64,000 nucleotides of DNA, taken from positions 79,972 to 143,971 of the forward strand of contig CAWGOM010000009.1 of NCBI GenBank assembly GCA_963824165.1, in the 5' to 3' direction. The notes beneath the pieces were generated by a model. It was not told the origin of the DNA, did no database searches, and was given only the letters and a program-made list of their open reading frames with translations. This stretch comes from an uncultured Acidobacteriota bacterium (GTDB lineage: Bacteria; Acidobacteriota; Thermoanaerobaculia; UBA5066; Gp7-AA6). Within the stretch, counting starts at the first letter, position 1. Every line of letters begins with the position of its first letter. Made by a program: the position numbers and the translations under genes. This document shows positions 13,481 through 25,893 of this stretch, in pieces.

Positions 13481-14647
13481 TCAGGGGTTGACGTTGACGG
13501 TGCCGGTCATGTCCGACTGGTGCGGTATGCAGAAGTAAGGGAACGAGCCCGTTTGGGTGAACGTCCGGGAGAAGGTCCCGCTCGTCTTGATGCCCGAGTT
13601 CCACAGGCCGTCGCCGTTGCACGGCGGGCACGGCCCGGAGGTCGAGGAGTGCTCCATGCCGCCGGCCCATTCCCACCGGATCGTGTCGCCGACCCGGATC
13701 GTCGACGTGCTGTTCCCGCTCGCCTCGTCGCGGAAGGACGTGATGCCGCCCGCGCCGACGCTGACGACCCGCGTGATGTTCCCCGACGGCTGCGTCGGAG
13801 TCCGCGTGGGAGTGCGCGTCGGGGTCGGCGTCGGAGTCGATGCCGACTGGGTGGGCGTCAGGGTGACGCCCGGCGTGATCGGCTGCGGGGGAAGGTCCTC
13901 GGCTCCCAGGACGAAGATCGGGTCGGTCGTGTTGTTGTCGATGACGGCGGCGTAGGAGAAGACCTCGTTCGACGCCGCGACGACGACGACCGCGTTCGCC
14001 GTGACGTGTCCTGCCTGGCCCGCCGCGGCGAAGATGCCGGAGACCTGTGCGCCCGAGTGCGCGGCGATCGACCGCGTGACGGGGTTTCCGACCTGGGCGC
14101 CGCCGTCGAAGATCGTGAACGTCACGTTGACGGCCGAATCCTCCCGGTTGAAGACGCCGACGTTGGTGCGAAACCCGAAAATGGGGGGGCCGTTGCGGAT
14201 CGAAGTCAGCACGGTCGTCGCGTGCGCCTCGGAGTTCTTCAGCCCCGGGATGAACATCCCGACCGTCGGCTCGGGCTCGGTCGAGTAGAGCCGGCTCGTC
14301 ACGACGAGCTGATCGCTGTCGCCCGAGAACTCGAACTCGATGCCGCCGGCCGTGTTGGGCGCGTTGAACTGGGACACCACGATGTCGTTGAACGCCCGCG
14401 ACTCCCGCGGCGTCAGCGTGAACGTCACCGACTGCGTCGTGGGGTTGCAGGGGCTCGGGATGAAGCAGCGGTACCGCGCCTCGACGGTCAGGTCCTCCGT
14501 GTACGACGTGTTGAACGCGCGCACGTCCGAGAAGAACGGCGCACCCCCCTGGATCGACGCCGCCGCCGGAAGCGTCAGGCTCTCGGCCAGGAGCGATCCA
14601 CCCGCCAGAGCCGCCGATAGAAACACCAGGAACTTCCGCATGGTCAC
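13481..14647 (-). CDS. secreted two-domain protein: beta-rich N-domain, Pro/Thr linker, C-terminal cupredoxin (blue-copper) domain
   Basis: 388 aa with signal peptide MTMRKFLVFLSAALAGGSLLA and linker TPTPTPTRTPTRTPT. The C-terminus has GMEHSS ... YFCIPHQSDMTG, a type-1 copper His...Cys-x2-His-x3-Met ligand pattern. Confidence 0.7.
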   Translation of the reverse strand: MTMRKFLVFLSAALAGGSLLAESLTLPAAASIQGGAPFFSDVRAFNTSYTEDLTVEARYRCFIPSPCNPTTQSVTFTLTPRESRAFNDIVVSQFNAPNTAGGIEFEFSGDSDQLVVTSRLYSTEPEPTVGMFIPGLKNSEAHATTVLTSIRNGPPIFGFRTNVGVFNREDSAVNVTFTIFDGGAQVGNPVTRSIAAHSGAQVSGIFAAAGQAGHVTANAVVVVAASNEVFSYAAVIDNNTTDPIFVLGAEDLPPQPITPGVTLTPTQSASTPTPTPTRTPTRTPTQPSGNITRVVSVGAGGITSFRDEASGNSTSTIRVGDTIRWEWAGGMEHSSTSGPCPPCNGDGLWNSGIKTSGTFSRTFTQTGSFPYFCIPHQSDMTGTVNVNP

Positions 14648-16448: not shown

Positions 16449-16478
16449 ATTGCGACTCTGTCTCAATTGCGATAGTCT
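16449..16478. promoter_or_regulatory. putative Fur-type operator overlapping the FTR1 promoter
   Basis: 19-bp 7-5-7 palindrome ATTGCGACTCTGTCTCAAT (16449-16467). It overlaps TTGCGA (16450-55), a 17-nt spacer and TAGTCT (16473-78). 15/19 positions match the palindrome at 18201-18219. Confidence 0.5.
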
Positions 16479-16524: not shown

Positions 16525-17316
16525 ATGTGGCAGGGATTCACGATCGCGCTCCGGGAAGGCATCGAGGCCTTCCTCATCATCGCCCTGACGCTCTCCTACC
16601 TCGCCCGCACCGGGCGCCGGGCCCTCTCGCGGGCCGTCTACGCGGCGCTCGCGGCCTCCGTCGTCAGCTGCACGCTCGCCGGGTGGTTCTTCTCCAAGGC
16701 CGTCAACCAGCCGCTCTGGGAGGGGATCCTGGCGCTCGCCGCCGCCGCCCTCGTCGGGAGCCTGCTCGTCTACATGAAGCGGGTCGCCTCGCGCCTGAAG
16801 TCGGACATCGAGGGCCGGATCGAAGCGAGCGCGAGCGCCGCCGACCCGGCGCGGGCGTTCTGGGGCGTCTTCGCCTTCACGCTGCTGATGATCACGCGCG
16901 AGGGAATGGAGACGGCGCTCCTGATCTCCACGGCCCTCTTCCAGATGAAATCCTCGTCGGTCTTCCTCGGGCTCGCGCTGGGGCTTCTCGCGGCTGCCGC
17001 GATCGGGTTTCTCTGGACGCGCCTCGGCCGGGGCGTGGACCTGAAGGCGCTCCTGAACGTGTCGGCCGTGTTCCTCGCGATCTTCCTTGTGCAGCTCGTG
17101 CTCTACGGCGTCCACGAGCTCTCCGAGGCGCGGCTCTTCCCCGCCTCGCAGGCCGTGCACGATGCCACCGAGATCCTCGGACCGGACGGGAAGATCGGCC
17201 AGCTTCTCGCCTACGCGCTCGCCGTCATTCCCACGGTCTGGCTCGGCGGCCTGGCGTGGAAGCGGTGGCGCGCGCGGGAATCGGCGCCGGCGACCGCGCG
17301 CACCCACGCCGCCTGA
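16525..17316 (+). CDS. FTR1-family high-affinity iron permease
   Basis: ATG at 16525 follows GGAAGGGAGAG. 263 aa, about 7 TM, with two REXXE iron-binding motifs (REGIEA and REGMET). Confidence 0.85.
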   Translation: MWQGFTIALREGIEAFLIIALTLSYLARTGRRALSRAVYAALAASVVSCTLAGWFFSKAVNQPLWEGILALAAAALVGSLLVYMKRVASRLKSDIEGRIEASASAADPARAFWGVFAFTLLMITREGMETALLISTALFQMKSSSVFLGLALGLLAAAAIGFLWTRLGRGVDLKALLNVSAVFLAIFLVQLVLYGVHELSEARLFPASQAVHDATEILGPDGKIGQLLAYALAVIPTVWLGGLAWKRWRARESAPATARTHAA

Positions 17317-17320
17317 CCCT

Positions 17321-18088
17321 TCAGGGCGGGGGTGGGGCGGCCGTCGGGCGGGGCGTTACGGCGGCGCGGCCCGACTGCAGCATCGCCTCGATCACCCGCG
17401 AAGAGATTCCGGCCGCGCGCAGCTGCTGAATGTCGCCGGTCGAAAGCGCGTAGTTCGTCTTCCCGGACCGGATCGCCTCCAGCAACTCTTCGTCGGAGGC
17501 GCCGGCCTGTTTCATCTTCAGGACCGCCGCGTAGGTCTTTGCTCCGGCCGACGGCGTGCCGACGTACGGCTGATCGGGCACGATGCCGGCGGGCCGCGGG
17601 GGCGTGACCGCGGGCGTCGGCGTCACGGGAACGACCGGGCGCAGGTAGCCGCCCGGTCCTTTCCCCGCGCCGCAGCCGGCTTTCGCGTCGGCGGCGTGCG
17701 TGAAGCGGATGAAGTCCGTGCCCCCCGGGACATCCACGTACTCGCCCTGCATCTCAACGCGGTCGCCGGGAGCGAGCGCGAGATCGCCCCCGCACGCGAG
17801 GTCGTGCACGATCCTGACCCTCCCCTGCATGTCGACGGGGACCTTGAGGTCGGCGCCGGCCGGCTGTTCGGCCGCCAGGGTGTAGGCGTCGAGCGTGACC
17901 TCGAACTCGAGCAAGCGGCGGCCGTTCTTGTCCGCCGTCCGCCGGGGCGGGGTGACGACCTCGGCCCTCGCGACGATCTCGACGTGCGGGCTCGCGGCCG
18001 GGCGGGCCTTCTCGGCGGCGAACGCCCCCGACGCCGCCAGGATGGCGCCGAGCGCGAATAAGACCGGCCGCGCGCCTCTCCCGAGCAC
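17321..18088 (-). CDS. secreted hypothetical protein (DUF3465-like OB-type N-domain, Pro-rich linker, helical C-domain)
   Basis: 255 aa with a signal peptide ending AFAAE. RVRIVHDL...PGDRVEMQGEYV...IRFTH resembles DUF3465 from memory. The C-terminal GASDEELLEAI..LRAAGISSRVIEAML is repeat-like. Confidence 0.45.
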   Translation of the reverse strand: MLGRGARPVLFALGAILAASGAFAAEKARPAASPHVEIVARAEVVTPPRRTADKNGRRLLEFEVTLDAYTLAAEQPAGADLKVPVDMQGRVRIVHDLACGGDLALAPGDRVEMQGEYVDVPGGTDFIRFTHAADAKAGCGAGKGPGGYLRPVVPVTPTPAVTPPRPAGIVPDQPYVGTPSAGAKTYAAVLKMKQAGASDEELLEAIRSGKTNYALSTGDIQQLRAAGISSRVIEAMLQSGRAAVTPRPTAAPPPP

Positions 18089-18166: not shown

Positions 18167-18219
18167 TTGACAGGCGGCGAGGCCCGGGCTTAGTCTTGCG
18201 ATTGAGACTGAATCTCAAT
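18167..18219 (+). promoter_or_regulatory. candidate promoter plus Fur-type palindrome upstream of the apbE operon
   Basis: TTGACA (18167-72), an 18-nt spacer and TAGTCT (18191-96), followed by the perfect 7-5-7 palindrome ATTGAGACTGAATCTCAAT (18201-18219). Confidence 0.45.
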
Positions 18220-19272
18220 CCAAATGAGAAACGCGTAGTGCTCGCCGTCTTCGCCCTCGCCGGCGCCGTGGCGACGACGGCCGCCCCGGTCCTCGCAGAG
18301 CGGTCCGTTTCCGCCATGGGCACGCGGCTCGAGCTCTCGGTCGTGGCCGCGAGCCGCGAGCGGGCGCTCGCCGCCTCGGAGACCGCGGTCGTGGAGGTCG
18401 CGCGCGTGGAAGATCTCCTGACGAGCTGGCGCGACAGCCCGCTCTCGCGGTTGAACGAGGCCGAGGTCGGCCGGGACGTCGCGCTCGGCGCCGAGCTCTT
18501 CGGCCTGCTCGAGGGCGTCCTGGCCTGGTCGAAGCGCACCGGCGGAGCTTTCGATCCGACGGTCCTTCCCCTCGTCCGCGCCTGGGACCTGCGGGGGGCC
18601 GGACGCATTCCGTCCCCGGAGAACCTGGCCCGGGCGCTCGCCGCGACGGGCGTCGAGCGCTTTCGCCTGGACCCGGTCCACCGCACGGCCATCAGGCTCG
18701 ACGCCCTGTCCGGGATCGAGGAAGGCGCCTGGGGCAAGGGCTATGCGCTCGATCGCGCCGCGGGGAAGCTCGCCGCCGCGGGCCGCGGGGCGCTGCTCGA
18801 CTTCGGAGGGCACGTCATCGCATTCGGCCGGGACGCCGAGGGGCGTGACTGGACCGTCTCGGTCGCCGATCCCCGGCGCCGCGACCGGGCCGTCGCCACT
18901 CTCCGCCTCGCGAACGCCTCCGCGTCCACGTCGGGCAACTCCGAGCGGGCCCGCGTCGTCTCCGGCCGGCGCATCGGGCATCTTCTCGATCCGCGCACGG
19001 GCGAGCCCGCCGCGGACTTCGGATCCGTGACGGTCGTCGCGCCCACCGGACTCGACGCCGACATCCTCTCCACCGCCCTTTTCGTCCTCGGCCCCCAGGC
19101 GGGTCTCGCCCTCTCCGAGCGCCTCCGCGCCGGCGGCGTCGCCCACGAAGCGCTCTTCCTCGTGGAGCGGGACGACCGCCTCGAAGCCCGATTCACCCCG
19201 GGCATCCCCCGCCTCGTCGTTTCGGCCGACGCCACCGTCGTGGACGGCCTTCCGATCCGCACCCAACCGTAA
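18196..19272 (+). CDS. apbE: FAD:protein FMN transferase (ApbE family)
   Basis: 358-aa ORF with signal-like VVLAVFALAGAVATTAAPVLA, MGT..L and the ApbE-typical GGAFDPTV block. The true start is uncertain (TTG 18196/18202 or GTG 18238) because the predicted promoter/operator overlaps the 5' end. Confidence 0.8.
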   Translation: MRLRLNLNPNEKRVVLAVFALAGAVATTAAPVLAERSVSAMGTRLELSVVAASRERALAASETAVVEVARVEDLLTSWRDSPLSRLNEAEVGRDVALGAELFGLLEGVLAWSKRTGGAFDPTVLPLVRAWDLRGAGRIPSPENLARALAATGVERFRLDPVHRTAIRLDALSGIEEGAWGKGYALDRAAGKLAAAGRGALLDFGGHVIAFGRDAEGRDWTVSVADPRRRDRAVATLRLANASASTSGNSERARVVSGRRIGHLLDPRTGEPAADFGSVTVVAPTGLDADILSTALFVLGPQAGLALSERLRAGGVAHEALFLVERDDRLEARFTPGIPRLVVSADATVVDGLPIRTQP

Positions 19273-19286
19273 GGAGGAATCGCGCC

Positions 19287-20750
19287 ATGCATCGAGTCTC
19301 GAGGTTCGTCGCCGCCTGTGCCTTCGTCGTCGCGGGAACTCTGGCCGCCGCGGCGCAGGTCCCGTCGCCGACACCGATCCCGGCGGCTCCCGCGCCGTCC
19401 GAAGACCGTATCCAACGTCTCGAGAGGCTTCTCGCCGAGACGCGCTCGGAGCTCGAGGCCATGAAGGCCGCGTCGACGGCGCCCGCGACCGACGCCCGGC
19501 TCGCCGAGATCGAGCGCAAGGTCGACATCCTCGCGCAGGAGATCGAGTCGATGAAGCTCGGCGAAGCGGCGGGGGGAGCGCCCCAGGTCGCCGCCGCTCC
19601 CGCGCCCGCGGGACCGTCCACGCAGGAAGGTGCCGCCGAACGGTACGGGCTCGGCCTCGCCGCCTCGAAGGTCTACGGGATCCGCCGGGGCGTCTCGATC
19701 GGCGGCTACGGCGAGGCGCTCTACGAGAACTTCGCCGACGCCCGGCAGGACGGAGCGCCCTCCAACCGGAACGACCGGATCGACTTCCTCCGCGCGGTCG
19801 CGTACCTCGGCTACAAGTTCAACGACAAGTGGCTCCTGAACACCGAGATCGAGTACGAGCACGCCCTGACCGGCGAAGACGCGGGCGGAGAGGTCGCGGT
19901 CGAGTTCGCCTACGTCGACTACATGCACTCGCGCGAGCTCAACGCCCGCACGGGCCTCGTCCTCGTGCCGATGGGTCTCGTCAACGAGCTGCACGAGCCG
20001 ACGGCCTTCCTCGGCGCTCGGCGCCCGGACGTCGAGCGGTTCATCCTGCCCACGACCTGGCGCGAGATCGGCGCCGGCATGTACGGCGAGGCGGGTCCCT
20101 TCGCCTACCGCGGCTACGTCACGAGCAGCCTCGACTCCGCGGGCTTCACCGCGGCCAACGGGATCCGCGGAGGCCGGCAGCAGGGCTCCGAGGCGCTCGG
20201 GCGCGACTGGGCGCTGTCGGGGAGGCTCGACTTCGTCGGTCTCGACGGGCTTCTCGTCGGCGGCTCGGTCTTCTCCGGCGAGACCGGCCAGGGGCAGACC
20301 GTCGACGGCAGCGAGCTCTCCGCGAGAACGACGGTCTACGACTTCCACGCCGACTGGAAGTGGCGGGGCCTGTGGCTGCGAGCGCTCTACGCGGGCTCCT
20401 CCATCGGACAGGCCGCCGAGATCAACGAAGCCAACGGCTTCACGGGAGCCCAGTCCGTGGGCAGCCGGCAGGAGGGCTGGTACGTGCAGGGGGCCTTCGA
20501 CCTCTTCTCGCTCTTCGCCGGGTCCAGGGTTTCGCTCTCGCCCTACGTGCGCTACGAGCAGTACGACACGCAGGCCGAGGTGCCGAGCGGCTTCGCGCGC
20601 AATCCCGCCAACGACAACACCGAGCTGACCCTGGGCCTGGGCTTCCAGCCGATCGATCAGCTGATCTTCAAGGCGGACTGGCAGCAGCGCCACAACGCGG
20701 CGGAAACGGGCGTCAACCAGTGGAACGTGTCGCTGGGATACATTTTCTAG
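19287..20750 (+). CDS. outer-membrane porin with N-terminal coiled coil (OprO/P-like beta-barrel)
   Basis: 487 aa with a signal peptide, a heptad-like segment (RIQRLERLLAETRSELEAMK ... EIERKVDILAQEIESMK), alternating beta-strand pattern and a terminal ...VSLGYIF (aromatic OMP C-terminus). Confidence 0.65.
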   Translation: MHRVSRFVAACAFVVAGTLAAAAQVPSPTPIPAAPAPSEDRIQRLERLLAETRSELEAMKAASTAPATDARLAEIERKVDILAQEIESMKLGEAAGGAPQVAAAPAPAGPSTQEGAAERYGLGLAASKVYGIRRGVSIGGYGEALYENFADARQDGAPSNRNDRIDFLRAVAYLGYKFNDKWLLNTEIEYEHALTGEDAGGEVAVEFAYVDYMHSRELNARTGLVLVPMGLVNELHEPTAFLGARRPDVERFILPTTWREIGAGMYGEAGPFAYRGYVTSSLDSAGFTAANGIRGGRQQGSEALGRDWALSGRLDFVGLDGLLVGGSVFSGETGQGQTVDGSELSARTTVYDFHADWKWRGLWLRALYAGSSIGQAAEINEANGFTGAQSVGSRQEGWYVQGAFDLFSLFAGSRVSLSPYVRYEQYDTQAEVPSGFARNPANDNTELTLGLGFQPIDQLIFKADWQQRHNAAETGVNQWNVSLGYIF

Positions 20751-20768
20751 CCAAACCTTGAGAGTCGA

Positions 20769-21320
20769 ATGCTGAGAACCCGGGTGATCGCCGTCGTCGG
20801 CGCCGCTCTTGCGGTCGTGGCCGACGCGAAGGTCTTCCTCACGAAGGAGGAAGCGCTGAAGCTCGCCTTCCCGGGAGCCTCGGTCGAGCGCCGGGCGGCG
20901 TTCCTGACGGAGGAACAGCGCCGCGAGGCGCAGAAGCGCTCCGGCGAGGCGGCGCTGCCCGCCGCGCTCGCGACCTTCTACGAGGCCACTCGGGACGGCA
21001 AGCCGATCGGCTTCGCGTATTTCGATGCGCACCTGGTCCGGACGGCGCCCGAAACGATCATGGTCGTCGTCGATCTCTCGGGTGGCCTCCGGCGCATCGA
21101 GGTCCTCTCCTTCGACGAGCCCGAGGAGTACCTGCCCCGGCCGGGCTGGTATGCGCAGTTCTCCGACAAGCCCCTGGACGACGAGCTCTCGTTGAAGCGC
21201 GGAATCCGGCCCATCACGGGAGCGACCCTCACGGCGCGAGCGACGACCGAGGCCGCGCGACGCTGCCTGGCGCTCCACCGCGTTCTCCATCCGCCGACGG
21301 CGCCCGAGTCCGCCCGATGA
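20769..21320 (+). CDS. periplasmic FMN-binding domain protein (predicted ApbE flavinylation substrate)
   Basis: 183 aa with an N-terminal signal/anchor. The C-terminal RPITGATLTARA matches the [S/T]GAT flavinylation motif of NqrC/RnfG-type FMN_bind domains. Confidence 0.75.
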   Translation: MLRTRVIAVVGAALAVVADAKVFLTKEEALKLAFPGASVERRAAFLTEEQRREAQKRSGEAALPAALATFYEATRDGKPIGFAYFDAHLVRTAPETIMVVVDLSGGLRRIEVLSFDEPEEYLPRPGWYAQFSDKPLDDELSLKRGIRPITGATLTARATTEAARRCLALHRVLHPPTAPESAR

Positions 21321-21754
21321 AACGCTGGGAAGCCTGGTGGAATCACGCGGCGCTGGCCGCCGTCTCGCTGACGGGGCTCGCGTACGGCGTCGCGCGATAC
21401 TTCCTCCACAACCCCGACCCCGATTCGCGCCTGGGACACCCCTGGCAGCCGGGCCTCGCCAAGGCGCACATTCTCGTCGCGCCGCTGGCGATCTTCGGAA
21501 TCGGGCTGCTGCTTCGCCGTCACGCCCTGGCCCGGATCCGGAACGGCGAATCCAACGGCCGCCGGACCGGCGTCTCGATGCTCTGGCTCGTTCTGCCGCT
21601 CGTCTTCTCCGGCTACCTCGTGCAGGTCCTCGTCGGCTGGGGCGCGGTCCGCTGGACCGGCTGGTCGCATGCGGCGCTGGGGGTGGTCTTTCTCCTCGCC
21701 TACGCGTTCCACCCCAAGCGCCGCGCCGCGACCGACACGGGCACGGACGAATAG
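21317..21754 (+). CDS. His-rich four-helix membrane protein (possible b-type haem / DUF4405-like)
   Basis: 145 aa. ATG overlaps the FMN_bind stop (ATGA). Four hydrophobic helices carry His near the helix ends (WWNHAAL, AKAHILV, WSHAAL, YAFHP). Confidence 0.55.
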   Translation: MKRWEAWWNHAALAAVSLTGLAYGVARYFLHNPDPDSRLGHPWQPGLAKAHILVAPLAIFGIGLLLRRHALARIRNGESNGRRTGVSMLWLVLPLVFSGYLVQVLVGWGAVRWTGWSHAALGVVFLLAYAFHPKRRAATDTGTDE

Positions 21755-21755
21755 A

Positions 21756-22715
21756 TCAGAAGACGTACGTCAGGCCGGCGGTGTATGCCGGCTTGATGTC
21801 CTGGATGCCGTTCAGGTTCTCCCACACGGGAAACTGGGCGGCGGCCCGGGCGACGAGGCCCTTGAAGACGTTCACGCCCACGCGCGGCGTGACGTAGAGG
21901 CTCTGGCCTCCCGTGTCCGGGTCGGGCACGCCGAGCTCGTCGACCTGGTCGTGCTCCGCGTCGAGGAAGTTCAACTCCACGAGGCCGTCGAGCCAGTCGG
22001 TCAGCTTGCGGTCGTACACGAGATTGACCTGGACGTTGTCGCCGTACTTGTAGCCGAAGTCGTTGCGCCCGGTGCCGGTGTAGGCCGCGGAAAGGTAGAG
22101 CGACGACTTCTCGTCGATGAGATAGAGGCTCGCCAGGCCGCCGGAGAGATTGGTCGCTCCGGTCCCCGGTTGCACGTGCTCGTCCAGCCGTTCGCCGTCC
22201 TCCGAGACGTCGTTCTCTCCCCAGGGCGTCTTGACCGAGAAGACGGCCGAGATCCAGGCGCGCCGGCCGAGCGGCGACTGGAAGGGCGAGGACCAGAGAC
22301 GGAAGTACGCGAAGAAGGCCGGATCGGCGAGGCCCTCGGCCGTCTCGACCTCGTGGCCCTCGGTCAGCTCGTTCCAGGTGTACGGGACCTGGGCCACGAT
22401 CGTGAAGCGCTCGCGAAAGCCGTAGGACAGCGTCGCGATCATCGTGTTGCGGACCTGCTCCTCGAACCCCTCGCCGTGTTTCATGCGATGTTCTTCGGCC
22501 TCGTGCTCCTCCCCCTGGGTCTGGTCGAGCCGGTTCCAGTCGAGCGCGACCTGGAAGCCGCCGTAACTGTAGAGCCCTTCGCCGAGGGCGCTGAAGACCG
22601 GATCGCTGCAGCGGCACATCGAGCAGGCGCGCGCGGGAGCGGAGGCGAGCCCCAGGCCGAGAAACGTCAAACTCAGCACCGCCGCGAGGCGGCGCGCGGG
22701 ATTCCCGCGATTCAT
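21756..22715 (-). CDS. outer-membrane beta-barrel protein (MetA-pathway/transporter-type OMP)
   Basis: 319 aa with a signal peptide ending APARA followed by CSMCRCSD. It has a His/Glu-rich loop (EEHEAEEHRMKHGEG), alternating strands and a terminal GLTYVF. Confidence 0.6.
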   Translation of the reverse strand: MNRGNPARRLAAVLSLTFLGLGLASAPARACSMCRCSDPVFSALGEGLYSYGGFQVALDWNRLDQTQGEEHEAEEHRMKHGEGFEEQVRNTMIATLSYGFRERFTIVAQVPYTWNELTEGHEVETAEGLADPAFFAYFRLWSSPFQSPLGRRAWISAVFSVKTPWGENDVSEDGERLDEHVQPGTGATNLSGGLASLYLIDEKSSLYLSAAYTGTGRNDFGYKYGDNVQVNLVYDRKLTDWLDGLVELNFLDAEHDQVDELGVPDPDTGGQSLYVTPRVGVNVFKGLVARAAAQFPVWENLNGIQDIKPAYTAGLTYVF

Positions 22716-22769
22716 GGATGACTCCTTTCCTCTCCCCGGCCAAATGCCGGAGAGGCCGACCGAGCGGGA

Positions 22770-23126
22770 TCAGGAAAGGAGTTTCGGGACCGGGTCCGGG
22801 CGCTCCGGGAGGACGCGAAGGACGAGGCCGGCGGTCAAGAGCGCGAGGAATCCCGCCAGCGGCGGCGCTGCGGGACCGTCCGGCAGCGCCGGCATGACGA
22901 CCCGCATCACCGGTGACTGAAGAAACCAGTCGGCCGGCGTCGGGCAGCGGCGCAGCGAGGTCCCGGCGGTGCCCGACTCGCAGCAGCAGGCCATTCCGGT
23001 GCCGTGATCGCAGGCCATCGCGCAGGCCTCTCCGCCCGCCATCCGCGTCGACGGCAGCGCCAGGCTCGCCGGAATCGCGAGGAGCGCGAGAAGCAGCATG
23101 CCGGCGGCGCGACGCATGGCGGGCAT
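22770..23126 (-). CDS. small secreted/anchored Cys-rich protein
   Basis: 118 aa with a signal peptide, the cluster GEACAMACDHGTGMACCCESG and a C-terminal hydrophobic helix. The ATG is 1 nt after the adenosyltransferase stop (alternative ATG 23117). Confidence 0.45.
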   Translation of the reverse strand: MPAMRRAAGMLLLALLAIPASLALPSTRMAGGEACAMACDHGTGMACCCESGTAGTSLRRCPTPADWFLQSPVMRVVMPALPDGPAAPPLAGFLALLTAGLVLRVLPERPDPVPKLLS

Positions 23127-23127
23127 T

Positions 23128-23691
23128 CTACGCCCGGCTATCCCAGAGCACGTCCGGGACGCCGCGCCGGCGGTTCTCGTGGCGCGCCATGACGAAGAGA
23201 GCGTCGGAGAGGCGATTCAGGTACTTCACGGTGAAGACGCCGACCGCTTCCCGGCGCGCGAGCGCGATCACGAGGCGCTCGGCGCGGCGGCAGACGGTCC
23301 GCGCGACGTGAAGCTCGGCCGCCGCGGGGCAGCCGCCCGGGAGCACGAAGTTCTCGAGCGGCGAAAGCTCCTCCGAGAGGCTGTCCATCAGAGCCTCGAG
23401 GGCGAGGACGTGGCGCTCCTCGATCTTCGGCGCCGGCCGTTTCGCCTTGTCCGCTTCGAGGATGCAGAGGTCCGAGCCCAGGTGAAAGAGCTCGTTCTGG
23501 ATCGCCGCGAGCGCGGGCCCGAGCATCTCGTTGACCCCCGCCGCGACCACGACGCCCAGATGGCTGTTGAGCTCGTCGACCGTGCCGTAGGCCGCGATCC
23601 GGATCGAGTCCTTCGGCACGCGCTGCCCGCCGCCCAGGGCCGTCGTCCCGTCGTCGCCGGTGCGCGTGTAGACCCGTGTGATGCGTGGCAT
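23128..23691 (-). CDS. pduO: ATP:cob(I)alamin adenosyltransferase, PduO/MMAB type
   Basis: 187 aa. [33 protein letters not shown] and LNRLSD are hallmark PduO-type motifs. Confidence 0.9.
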
Positions 23692-23695
23692 GGAT

Positions 23696-25543
23696 CTAGA
23701 ACTTTACGTCCAATCCGCCGGCGACGAGCCTTCCCGCCGCCGGATAGCCCGCCGCCTCCTCGTACGCGTGGTTGGTCAGGTTGATCATGCGCAGGTACGG
23801 CGCGAGGTACGCAGTCGCCTGCCAGCGGGCGACGAGGTCGACCCGGAGGTAAGACGGGTCCTCGACCGGGTCGCCGGTGAGCGGATTCGAGTCCGCCCGC
23901 GGGCCGACGTAGAGCAGGCGCGGCGAGAGATTCAGCGTCGGGATCGGCATCCAGGAGACGCCGAGCGACGCGCCGTTCTCGGGACGGCGCAGGAGCGGGT
24001 CGCCCGTCGCGAGGTCCTCGGTCTTCAGGTACATGTACGTCACGTTGACCGCGAGCTCGGGAAGGACGGTCTGCTGCCAGCCGAGCTCGACGCCGTAGGT
24101 GCGGGCGTTTCCGATGTTGTAGTTCTTGAAGGTCGCGAAGTCGTAGACGATCAGGTCGTCGAGGTCGTTCCAGAAGACCGAGACCTCCGCGCGGCCGCCG
24201 TCGAAGTAGCGCTCGGCCCCGACCTCCGCGGACACGGACCGCTCGGGCTTCAGGTCCGGGTTCCCGCTGAACGGGTAGTAGAGCTCGCCGACCGACGGGG
24301 CGCGGAACCCGGTGCCTCCCGAGGCGCGAACCTTCCAGAGCCGGTCGGCCGAGAGCCACGAGATCGTTCCGCGCGGGCTCCACGCGTCGCCGTAGGTCGA
24401 GTAGCGGTCGTAGCGCAGGCCGGCCGTGATCGTGACGGCGCCGAAGGTGGCCGAGTCCTGGGCGCCGAGGCCCCAGAGCGTCGTGCGCGCGTCGTCGAGG
24501 TTCACGCCGAAGTTGCTCTCGTCGCTGACCTGCCAGCGCTGCCACGAGGCGAAGGCCGTCAGCGTGTGCGCGCCGAGCTTCGCCGTGTCCGAGACGCTCG
24601 CCTGGAGCGTCTGCGCGTCGGTCTGCGATGCGTAGCCGCCGGCGGTGTCGGTGTAGGTGGGCTGCGACTTCACGCCGGCGAGCAGCACGTCGAGCTGGTT
24701 CGAGTCGGACAGCGCGAAGGTGCCCGGCATCGACAGGCGCGCCTCGTGCGTGGTCCCCCGCGCCGTCGAGGGTAGACCGACCGGGCCGGGGTTGCCGACC
24801 TCGCCATCGAGCAACCCCCACTCGAAGCCGATCCGGCTCTTCTCGGACAGGCGCGCCTGCAGGCTCGCCGAGCCGTTGCGCTGCCGCCAGTCGCCGTTGG
24901 GGCGTTCGCCGTCGAAGGCGACGTAGCGATAGCTCGCCGTAGCCGAGATCGGCCCCTCGCCCGCCGAGACGAAGGCCGAGCCCTGCCCCTGGCCCTCGTT
25001 GCCGGCCTCCCCCGTCGCCCGGCCCGACACGCCCTCGGCCCCCGGCCGCGTGAAGATCTGCACGACGCCGCCGATCGCGTCCGAGCCGTAGAGCGCGGAA
25101 AAGGGCCCGCGCGCGATCTCGATGCGGTCGATGTTCTCGGTCGTCAGCCCCGACCAGTCGTAGCCGGAGAAGTAGGGCGAGTTCATGCGCACGCCGTCGA
25201 TCAGGACGAGCGTCTGGGTCGAGTTCGTGCCGCGGGTGAAGAGCGACGTCAGCGAGCCCGGCGTCCCGTACTGGACGACGTCGAGGCCGGGAATCGAGCG
25301 CAGGACGTCGGAGACGACTGCGGACTCGTGCCGCTCGAGCTCCTCGCGGGTCACAACGGTGATCGCCGAACCGACGTCCTTCTCGTCCTCCGGCACCGAC
25401 GTGGCGGTGACGACGATGTTCTCGGTGGCCGGAGGCACCTGCTGGGCGCGCGCGACGCCCGGCGCGGCGAGGAAGACGAGCGCCAGGAGGACCGGAGGGG
25501 AAAGAAGCCGATGTGAGGAAACCCGCGGGACCGCGGTCGCCAT
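23696..25543 (-). CDS. btuB: TonB-dependent receptor, BtuB-like corrinoid transporter
   Basis: ATG at 25543-25541 follows GGGAGG. Signal peptide, TonB-box-like ENIVVTAT, plug motifs ([26 protein letters not shown]) and a terminal ...GGLDVKF. A cobalamin riboswitch lies directly upstream. Confidence 0.9.
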
Positions 25544-25647
25544 TCGAACCTCCCGTTCGACAGGACGGATTTCTCGAACGGTCGAGAAGCGTCCCGCGCC
25601 CCGGGGATTCGAAGGCGCGTCTCTCGTGTGGCCCCGTGCGAGAAGCG

Positions 25648-25822
25648 TGTCGTCCGGCAGGTCTCCTGGCTTCCGGATCTTCCGCCTTCGGGCTCCTTCC
25701 CGGACGCGCAACCGGCTCGTGCCGATCCATCGCATCCAGTGGTTTGCCGCCCGAGGCGTCCCCGGTGACAGTGGCGGGGGCCGCGTGGGAATCACACCCA
25801 CTTCCCTTGGCCGAACGATTCA
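25648..25822 (-). promoter_or_regulatory. cobalamin (AdoCbl) riboswitch
   Basis: The minus strand reads ...GGCCAAGGGAAGTGGGTGTGATTCCCACGCGGCCCCCGCCACTGTCACCGGGG ... GGAAGCCAGGAGACCTGCCGGACG. Conserved GGGAAG, GGTG..ATTCC and CCCGCCACTGT elements and the B12 box AGCCAGGAGACCTGCC are all present, in the btuB 5' leader. Confidence 0.85.
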
Positions 25823-25893
25823 AAGAGCGCGAAGGGGACGAACCATAACGCTTCGGCCCCGACGGCGCAACCTCCGCATAGAATGCCCGCAGA

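Follow-up and report, generated by a model that had tools for sequence, protein, structure and literature searches.

A conserved flavin transferase, outer-membrane protein, flavoprotein and four-helix membrane protein module, putatively controlled by Fur, in Acidobacteriota and Gemmatimonadota

The module and its distribution

The window analysed here, a 64-kb stretch of DNA (70% G+C) from an uncultured Acidobacteriota bacterium that protein matches assign to Thermoanaerobaculia, contains four co-oriented genes encoding an ApbE flavin transferase, a predicted outer-membrane beta-barrel-type protein (OMP), a secreted or anchored FMN_bind protein (FMN, flavin mononucleotide) and a four-helix inner-membrane protein, referred to here as 4TM (Table 1). 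The apbE and OMP genes are 14 nt apart, the OMP and FMN_bind genes 18 nt apart, and the FMN_bind and 4TM genes overlap by 4 nt (ATGA), an overlap by which, judging from the sequence, 4TM is translationally coupled to FMN_bind. An earlier note on this DNA had described the same packing, and the coordinates of the open reading frames (ORFs) agree with it. Upstream lie fur and the gene of an FTR1/EfeU-family iron permease, and Fur-box-like palindromes mark the promoters of both fur/FTR1 and apbE. The cluster is read here as a Fur-repressed module for metal starvation, most likely iron starvation, that would carry electrons from membrane quinol to the periplasm and there reduce Fe(III); we give this reading a probability of about 0.55. 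Its computed support consists of gene content, conservation across phyla, a shared operator, conserved histidines and a conserved flavinylation motif, and enrichment of particular neighbours.

Genes of the module were located in relatives by tblastn and hidden Markov model searches. About 120 loci, with flanks that are unrelated, carry the module; they belong to Thermoanaerobaculia, to Gemmatimonadota/Longimicrobiales-like contigs and to others. When GTDB species genomes were scanned with 4TM, 38 loci were returned, all from Acidobacteriota, nearly all of them with the quartet intact and in the same order. Synteny within Thermoanaerobaculia was set aside as stand-alone evidence of linkage, because unrelated genes, among them that of tyrosyl-tRNA synthetase (TyrRS), show the same degree of synteny there, and the argument is therefore built on distant loci and on rearrangements. 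Four distant loci (L039–L042), with 4TM proteins 31–38% identical, encode ApbE, a 420–481-residue protein, an FMN_bind-like protein and 4TM in the same order, within flanks wholly different from those of the window; the 4-nt overlap of the FMN_bind and 4TM genes is kept in them, as it is in the fusion loci described below. Some of the distant 4TM homologues come from Longimicrobiales or Gemmatimonadota metagenome-assembled genomes. A metagenome scan with an OMP alignment gave 461 confirmed hits, from which 80 loci were kept; here an FMN_bind gene always follows the OMP gene directly, apbE is almost always adjacent and the 4TM family comes next in about half. The quartet is a conserved module, and not an instance of local synteny.

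The slot after FMN_bind is occupied in 24 metagenome loci by an unrelated four-helix protein of ~185 residues (L094:9920-10474, L116:9966-10538, L102:6199-6810 and 21 further loci), which has no Pfam match and carries, in this order, the motifs MKYMExGG, E.TH.H and LTHL. By its sequence, this MKYME protein seems to stand in for 4TM as a different membrane subunit of the same module. Other lineages have a fusion protein in which the 4TM domain stands N-terminal to ApbE. Four of the five fusion loci inspected (L124–L127) encode OMP (43–50% identity), FMN_bind and 4TM::ApbE; the fifth (L123:3131-8611, 35% G+C) encodes NuoA, NuoB, an unknown 266-residue protein, a GMC oxidoreductase, FMN_bind and 4TM::ApbE, and has no OMP. 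This last arrangement indicates that FMN_bind, 4TM and ApbE form a general electron-transfer unit for which OMP is the module-specific partner, and it suggests that the flavin/cytochrome trio also serves other periplasmic redox enzymes. From one GTDB genome (L022:8590-9983) apbE and the OMP gene are apparently absent, with FMN_bind and 4TM kept beside fur/FTR1; deletion or misassembly could account for this.

Table 1. Coordinates, strands and supporting evidence for the features of the module and its upstream region in the window.
Feature	Position	Strand	Evidence
fur, Fur-family regulator, 169 aa	15936..16445	-	Pfam FUR, 112 bits
Fur-box-like 19-bp palindrome, divergent fur and FTR1 promoters	16449..16467	.	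Sequence match to apbE box
FTR1/EfeU-family iron permease, two REXXE motifs	16525..17316	+	Pfam FTR1, 98.9 bits
Secreted 255-aa protein, no family	17321..18088	-	Divergent from apbE promoter region
apbE operon promoter reading	18167..18196	+	TTGACA (18167-18172), 18 nt, TAGTCT (18191-18196)
Fur-box-like 9-1-9 palindrome ATTGAGACTGAATCTCAAT	18201..18219	.	Directly 3′ of -10 hexamer
apbE, FAD:protein FMN transferase	18196..19272 (ORF as drawn)	+	Pfam ApbE, 212 bits
Predicted outer-membrane beta-barrel-type protein (OMP), 487 aa, N-terminal periplasmic coiled coil	19287..20750	+	No Pfam family
Secreted or anchored FMN_bind (RnfG-like) protein	20769..21320	+	Pfam, 21.3 bits (cut-off 22)
4TM, 145-aa four-helix inner-membrane protein, putative dihaem cytochrome b	21317..21754	+	No Pfam model

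Operator, promoters and metal-supply neighbours

The palindrome at apbE is self-complementary at 16 of its 19 positions and lies 4 nt 3′ of TAGTCT. The minus strand of the box between fur and FTR1 reads ATTGAGACAGAGTCGCAAT, identical to the apbE box at 16 of 19 positions, and these two are the only copies in the window (shuffle expectation 0 to 0.15); the earlier note was thus right that the two promoters share a palindrome. The fur-side box is 4 nt upstream of the fur ATG and covers the -35 hexamer and spacer of an FTR1 promoter reading (TTGCGA/17 nt/TAGTCT); in nearly all related loci the box is kept 13 nt from the fur start. Placement at -10/+1 in two promoters, including that of fur itself, fits an operator. 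The palindrome was also considered as an RNA element and rejected as such, Rfam giving no family there. The apbE box has a 15-nt core that agrees with the 7-1-7 Fur consensus TGATAATnATTATCA at 10 of 14 positions, better than any other site in the window; the fur/FTR1 box agrees at 8 of 14. In the direct register of the 19-bp Escherichia coli Fur consensus the apbE box matches at 6 of 19 positions; for this box the 7-1-7 core comparison, rather than the 19-bp register, is the appropriate one.

Between species the apbE box is nearly invariant, and nearly all related loci have a box at both fur and apbE. Acidobacteriota loci are arranged either as fur(-)/FTR1(+)...apbE, the order in the window, or as FTR1(-)/fur(+) directly 5′ of apbE, and both orientations of the fur–FTR1 pair keep the operator at fur and at apbE. 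Distant loci with no fur neighbour carry near-canonical boxes upstream of apbE: TGAGAATGATTCTCA in L042 (12 of 14 positions of the Fur consensus) and TGAGAATGGTTCTCA in L040 and L041 (11 of 14). In L103, L109 and L111 another palindrome, TGCGAAC-N-GTTCGCA, precedes the OMP gene as well as fur. With the same operator at fur and apbE in dozens of species and the near-canonical boxes of the distant loci, the Fur control put forward in the earlier note is well supported at the level of sequence. A third operator-like palindrome, AGGACC-N6-GGTCC, distinct from the TGAGA and TGCGAAC boxes, is embedded in a CTTGACA promoter (L106:5810-5850, L119:7965-8000), 5′ of a module-heading fur in L106 and 5′ of the OMP gene in L119.

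The position of the operator bears on the 5′ end of apbE, which had been placed at 18196. The TTG there sits within the -10 hexamer, upstream of the operator, and this favours GTG 18238, probably the true start. At the equivalent position in related loci stands CTTGAC-N17-TATCGT; a consensus promoter scanner did not call the TTGACA/18 nt/TAGTCT reading at apbE. The start of the 255-residue secreted protein gene is ~115 nt from the Fur box at apbE, so this gene may share the operator and be co-regulated. The protein, for which Pfam scans gave no family match, is seen in Thermoanaerobaculia-type loci only, and its membership of the module is uncertain.

In L002 (5245-6903), L024 (4797-6947), L031, L033 and L038, the first gene of the operon encodes a CCP_MauG-like dihaem cytochrome c peroxidase (552–716 residues), and where this gene precedes apbE the Fur-box palindrome is shifted upstream of it. 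A peroxidase gene behind the same box would suit a periplasmic redox-stress system, in which the cytochrome b and FMN feed peroxidases or repair enzymes under PerR-like Fur-family control. The best NCBIfam matches of the window regulator are to Fur, all below cut-off, and Fur-family neighbours of the module also score against PerR models, as such a system would predict. Most loci, like the window, have no peroxidase gene, however; a channel in the outer membrane would have no obvious role, and the DtxR-type, FeoB and FTR1 neighbours indicate metal supply, which makes a redox-stress system very improbable.

The neighbours were counted by lineage. OMP sequences clustered at 70% identity form 32 lineages, 26 of which have an upstream flank of at least 800 bp; a Fur- or DtxR-family gene adjoins the module in 15 of these 26, and FTR1 lies within 4 kb in six. 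Among 117 flanking ORFs counted in 21 diverse loci, the commonest families are Fe_dep_repr_C (8), FUR (4) and Fe_dep_repress (4), followed by several families with three members, which include Gate and FeoB_C, both FeoB domains. Genes of the DtxR family are adjacent in L029, L030, L074, L091, L093, L095, L098, L099, L114, L115, L116/L117 and L124. In L114 and L116, feoB, a FeoA-domain regulator of the DtxR type, (fur) and the module follow one another in a single orientation, and in L093 (10463-16403) the module is followed by a DtxR/MntR-like regulator, a 577-residue cytochrome c::FTR1 fusion and two proteins of ~600 residues with no Pfam match. The expectation that the quartet would be found elsewhere with iron genes is borne out by fur, DtxR-type repressors, FTR1 and feoB.

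These regulators also raise the question of which metal is involved. Manganese could take the place of iron if OMP were a Mn2+-selective porin and the flavin/cytochrome pair reduced Mn(III/IV) to Mn(II) under MntR- or Mur-type control; MnoP of Bradyrhizobium, regulated by Mur, is a precedent for a metal porin under a Fur-family regulator. The adjacent DtxR-family regulators of 160–176 residues, which have no SH3/FeoA domain, score best against MntR models, and a conserved acidic strand of OMP (E187/E189/E191) would suit cation selection. The linked transporters are nevertheless ferrous (FTR1 in six lineages, FeoB in L114 and L116), and neither an Nramp nor a manganese ABC transporter is found within the top 25 flank families. 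The DtxR-type regulators of L114 and L116 carry FeoA domains, one of them scoring best as DtxR; in the window the regulator scores best as Fur and the box resembles the Fur consensus. Manganese as the substrate is accordingly regarded as quite unlikely.

Under the iron reading, the permease next to the module calls for separate comment. The FTR1 protein, whose two REXXE motifs the earlier note had reported correctly, carries REGIE and REGME and scores 114 bits against the NCBIfam EfeU model, below the cut-off of 255. It is encoded 0.9 kb upstream of apbE in a separate transcription unit that has only the operator in common with the module. FTR1 does not hold as an obligatory partner, since beyond the lineages that have it within 4 kb others have feoB and many have neither. 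Its description as an orphan may not stand either: a gene at 13481-14647 on the minus strand, 1.9 kb from FTR1, encodes a secreted protein of 388 residues with a C-terminal cupredoxin domain (PF00127, E 3e-5), and many related genomes keep it in synteny with TyrRS, fur and FTR1, some of them with two or three copies in tandem. By its sequence the cupredoxin protein might serve FTR1 as an FtrB-like oxidase, and the synteny suggests that FTR1 may have a partner of its own. Pfam searches of ten ORFs scanned around the cluster found no P19.

Downstream of the module, a cobalamin riboswitch (RF00174, 92.8 bits, 25639-25830, minus strand) heads a minus-strand operon (genes 21756-25638) with a TonB-dependent receptor, a PduO-type corrinoid adenosyltransferase (23128-23691), a 118-residue protein (22770-23126) and, as its last gene, one for a barrel-like protein of 319 residues with a CSMCRC motif (21756-22715). 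The receptor was considered as part of an iron system and rejected, as the riboswitch that leads it points to vitamin B12 uptake; the riboswitch position also implies that the 701-residue receptor ORF is over-extended at its 5′ end.

The module proteins

The apbE product matches the ApbE profile PF02424 over residues 41–310, at a score far above the cut-off of 25.6 bits (Table 1). Its predicted substrate, the FMN_bind protein, falls just below the PF04205 cut-off in the window, and the L039 orthologue scores 24 bits; many homologues at 65–88% identity carry PF04205, and their source names are RnfG or FMN-binding protein. Experiments on other substrates have validated the [S/T]GA[S/T] motif of ApbE substrates (PMC8238504). 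The window protein contains RPITGATLT, and [TSA]GA[TS]L[TS] is present in 14 of 14 correctly framed orthologues from different lineages, in which YFDxHxVRT and FxEPxxY are likewise conserved. The flavinylation motif reported earlier as ITGATLT is thereby confirmed as a conserved feature, and the threonine of TGAT is predicted from it to be the residue flavinylated by ApbE.

The 4TM protein was modelled with AlphaFold2. A first model, from 17 close homologues, had a predicted local distance difference test (pLDDT) score of 62 and was superseded by one built on an alignment of 70 diverse representatives, which has a pLDDT of 93, a predicted template modelling score of 0.84 and four helices (residues 3–28, 44–75, 82–104 and 108–130), as anticipated from the sequence. 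An exhaustive profile search places 593 clusters (50% identity) in the family at E ≤0.001, of which 381 are found at E ≤1e-10. Among the 70 representatives, which share 27–55% identity, G20, H51, P56, H69, G85, G99, H118 and H132 are invariant, and H41, P42 and P45 nearly so. The histidines to which the earlier note had drawn attention are thus conserved, with the four invariant ones on helices 2 and 4. From the positive-inside distribution of charges, H51 and H118 would face the periplasm and H69 and H132 the cytoplasm, a layout expected of two bis-histidine haems.

The closest folds in the PDB are those of the cytochrome b HyaC of E. coli hydrogenase-1 (4gd3_A and 6g94_B; TM-score 0.54–0.58, probability 0.87–0.89), with STEAP2 as the next structural neighbour. 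A search of PDB sequences with the 4TM-family profile returned nothing meaningful, and NCBIfam gave no match for 4TM, OMP or FMN_bind. Weak matches to Ni_hydr_CYTB occur in 13 of the 70 relatives (best E 7.8e-6), and nine match DUF4405 (PF14358) at E 0.011 or worse, with one 4TM::ApbE fusion at E 0.0073. The window protein itself matches no Pfam family at E ≤1, and DUF4405, named as a candidate family in the earlier note, is not supported for it. We read 4TM, from these matches, as a remote member, so far unclassified, of the dihaem cytochrome b superfamily, and predict that it binds haem.

OMP has a conserved signal peptide, a heptad-rich segment (residues 39–104) whose Pfam matches are all of coiled-coil type, and the C-terminal sequence ...GYIF. 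It is 46–50% identical across phyla and its N-terminal coiled coil is conserved, the periplasmic heptad region being shorter in Gemmatimonadota. At 92 positions, conservation among 118 homologues reaches 93% or more, and these positions are rich in glycine (29) and tyrosine (eight), as in barrels; besides the alternating acidic strand E187/E189/E191, the conserved residues include H236/E237, R259/E260, H354 and the terminal phenylalanine. The window protein and four distant orthologues match the BBP2 porin family weakly (E 0.023–0.16) and show no match to Porin_O_P (PF07396) at E ≤1, so that Porin_O_P, named as a candidate in the earlier note, is not supported. NCBI names one homologue 'porin', and an OMP profile search of PDB sequences returned nothing meaningful. 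A role for OMP as a DUF3570-like flavinylation substrate was considered and rejected, the protein having no conserved [ST]GA[ST] motif. Conservation this strong points away from plain diffusion and towards a specific binding site or a partner protein.

One way to account for it is a conduit across the outer membrane, in which FMN_bind uses the coiled coil to dock inside or beneath the barrel and electrons exit to dissolve or respire Fe(III) minerals. The unbroken succession of OMP and FMN_bind genes is consistent with docking, as is the conserved coiled coil, and an identity across phyla of 46–50% for OMP against 31–38% for 4TM is more than a diffusion porin would usually show, which hints at a partner protein. 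A single FMN, however, could not bridge the outer membrane, no CXXCH motif was read in any of the four module products, and OMP has no conserved [ST]GA[ST] site, the residues at its TGAQ differing from one orthologue to another. Control by a metal regulator, moreover, suits assimilation better than respiration, and a conduit of this kind seems highly unlikely. OMP might alternatively be a flavin channel that imports riboflavin, FMN or FAD for flavinylation, or serves a shuttle of free flavin that reduces iron outside the cell. Flavin secretion under iron limitation is known in several bacteria, and flavin transporters co-localize with apbE/cytochrome clusters in other bacteria (PMC11334425). 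OMP has no similarity to known flavin transporters, however, and its sequence says nothing about its substrate; we consider a flavin channel the least probable of the alternatives.

Proposed electron route and its relation to known systems

In the reading preferred here, of a Fur-repressed module for iron starvation, ApbE would attach FMN covalently to the threonine of the TGAT motif. The 4TM protein would be a dihaem b-type cytochrome, with one haem held by H51 and H118 near the periplasm and the other by H69 and H132 near the cytoplasm, and would pass electrons from quinol across the inner membrane to the covalent FMN. The reduced flavoprotein could then reduce ferric species let in through the dedicated OMP, or act via free flavin crossing it, and the resulting Fe(II) would be taken up by the ferrous importer of the genome, the Fur-co-regulated FTR1 here and FeoB in other lineages. 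Thermodynamics favour reduction of Fe(III) by a low-potential flavin, and not the reverse. We infer haem binding, flavinylation, the direction of electron flow, the reduction of iron as substrate and the channel role from the sequences. Of the iron-regulated trans-envelope route outlined in the earlier note, the conserved module, the operator and the iron neighbours have stood; the specific coupling to FTR1, the family suggestions and the 5′ end of apbE have not.

Several observations weigh against this reading. In 11 of the 26 lineages no regulator adjoins the module, and in most of them no Fe(II) importer does. The short regulators of DtxR type beside the module have MntR models as their best matches and the Fur-type neighbours also match PerR models, all below the curated cut-offs, which weakens the assignment of the metal as iron. 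FTR1-type permeases are classically paired with a periplasmic Fe(II) oxidase and not a reductase (Fet3/Ftr1, EfeUOB, FtrABCD). The window 4TM has no significant Pfam or PDB sequence match, and the fold matches of its model are without statistical significance (E ~0.7). The reading does not account for the strong conservation of a channel that is not TonB-dependent, and the direction of electron flow through the trio may differ between contexts, as L123 with its GMC oxidoreductase indicates.

Clusters of ApbE, flavoprotein and cytochrome linked to iron reduction have been described (PMC8238504; PMC11334425). The first of the published settings is that of the DUF4405 cytochromes b, described as six-helix proteins whose co-localization with apbE is chiefly found in Proteobacteria and Firmicutes and whose partner substrates are often of the Flavodoxin_4 type (Huang et al. 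2024, mSystems, PMC11334425). The most conserved residues of DUF4405 are four histidines placed for two haems, and electron transfer across the cytoplasmic membrane has been proposed for it (PMC11334425). In both settings apbE adjoins the gene of an extracytosolic protein that is flavinylated (a prediction for the module) and that of a small membrane protein with four conserved histidines. Unlike DUF4405, 4TM has four helices and the window protein has no PF14358 match, and the module adds a conserved OMP to an RnfG-like FMN_bind substrate.

Assimilatory ferric reductase activity has been proposed for PepSY-like/DUF2271/DUF4198/ApbE and MsrQ-like/FMN_bind clusters (Meheust et al. 2021, eLife, PMC8238504), whose link to iron consists of Fur repression and of neighbouring ferrous transporters (VIT1) or TonB receptors (PMC8238504). 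They resemble the present module in joining flavinylation to a haem membrane protein (here putative) and to Fur, but their PF03929/PF16357 and PF01794 domains are not matched by it. Their outer-membrane partner is a TonB-dependent receptor, whereas here a predicted coiled-coil barrel takes that place and the importers are FTR1 and FeoB. The third published setting is that of P19/FTR1 clusters with an FMN_bind gene, mostly Gram-positive, for which a redox role in iron uptake was proposed (PMC8238504). The window likewise has FTR1 near FMN_bind, but FTR1 is here a separate unit with a shared operator, and the module usually occurs without it.

Comparison with the Ni_hydr_CYTB cytochromes (HyaC, FdnI-type) rests on the four-helix bundle, HyaC being the best structural neighbour of 4TM. 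The two helix-4 histidines of 4TM are 14 residues apart, a spacing that we take to hold for FdnI also. The window 4TM differs from this family in having no significant sequence match to it, in its family's use of helix 2 for two histidine ligands, and in its partner, a flavoprotein instead of a hydrogenase or formate dehydrogenase. Porin–cytochrome conduits such as MtrAB and Cyc2 combine a dedicated outer-membrane barrel, a redox protein in the periplasm and a quinol-linked cytochrome in the inner membrane, in the context of iron redox chemistry, and the module is predicted to do likewise; unlike them, the module has no c-type haem motifs, and its redox protein would carry a single FMN.

The general kind of system, ApbE with a flavoprotein and a haem membrane protein, is known; what is new is the putative four-helix cytochrome family, the outer-membrane partner that is not TonB-dependent and the defined candidate Fur operator. 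Neither PMC8238504 nor PMC11334425 mentions 'porin' or 'barrel', which agrees with the earlier view of the composition as undescribed, and full-text literature searches found no paper on this module, its OMP partner or the 4TM cytochrome family. A more far-reaching proposal, tentative and on balance unlikely, is that of a phylum-spanning trans-envelope system in which a trimeric coiled-coil barrel docks a flavinylated protein fed by a new four-helix dihaem cytochrome b family, with 4TM and MKYME interchangeable. Such a system would be a flavin-based counterpart of the porin–cytochrome conduits, for reductive metal acquisition in Acidobacteriota, Gemmatimonadota and relatives.

Acidobacteriota and Gemmatimonadota are abundant soil bacteria that are hard to culture, and their acquisition of iron is poorly understood. 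Two large families without a Pfam model, 4TM and OMP, gain an annotation from this analysis. If the reading of the module as a Fur-repressed iron-starvation system is true, 4TM would be a fourth class of membrane cytochrome among flavinylation-linked electron-transfer systems, the module would be the first such system with a conserved outer-membrane protein of its own that is not TonB-dependent, and a clear Fur operator would be defined for both phyla.

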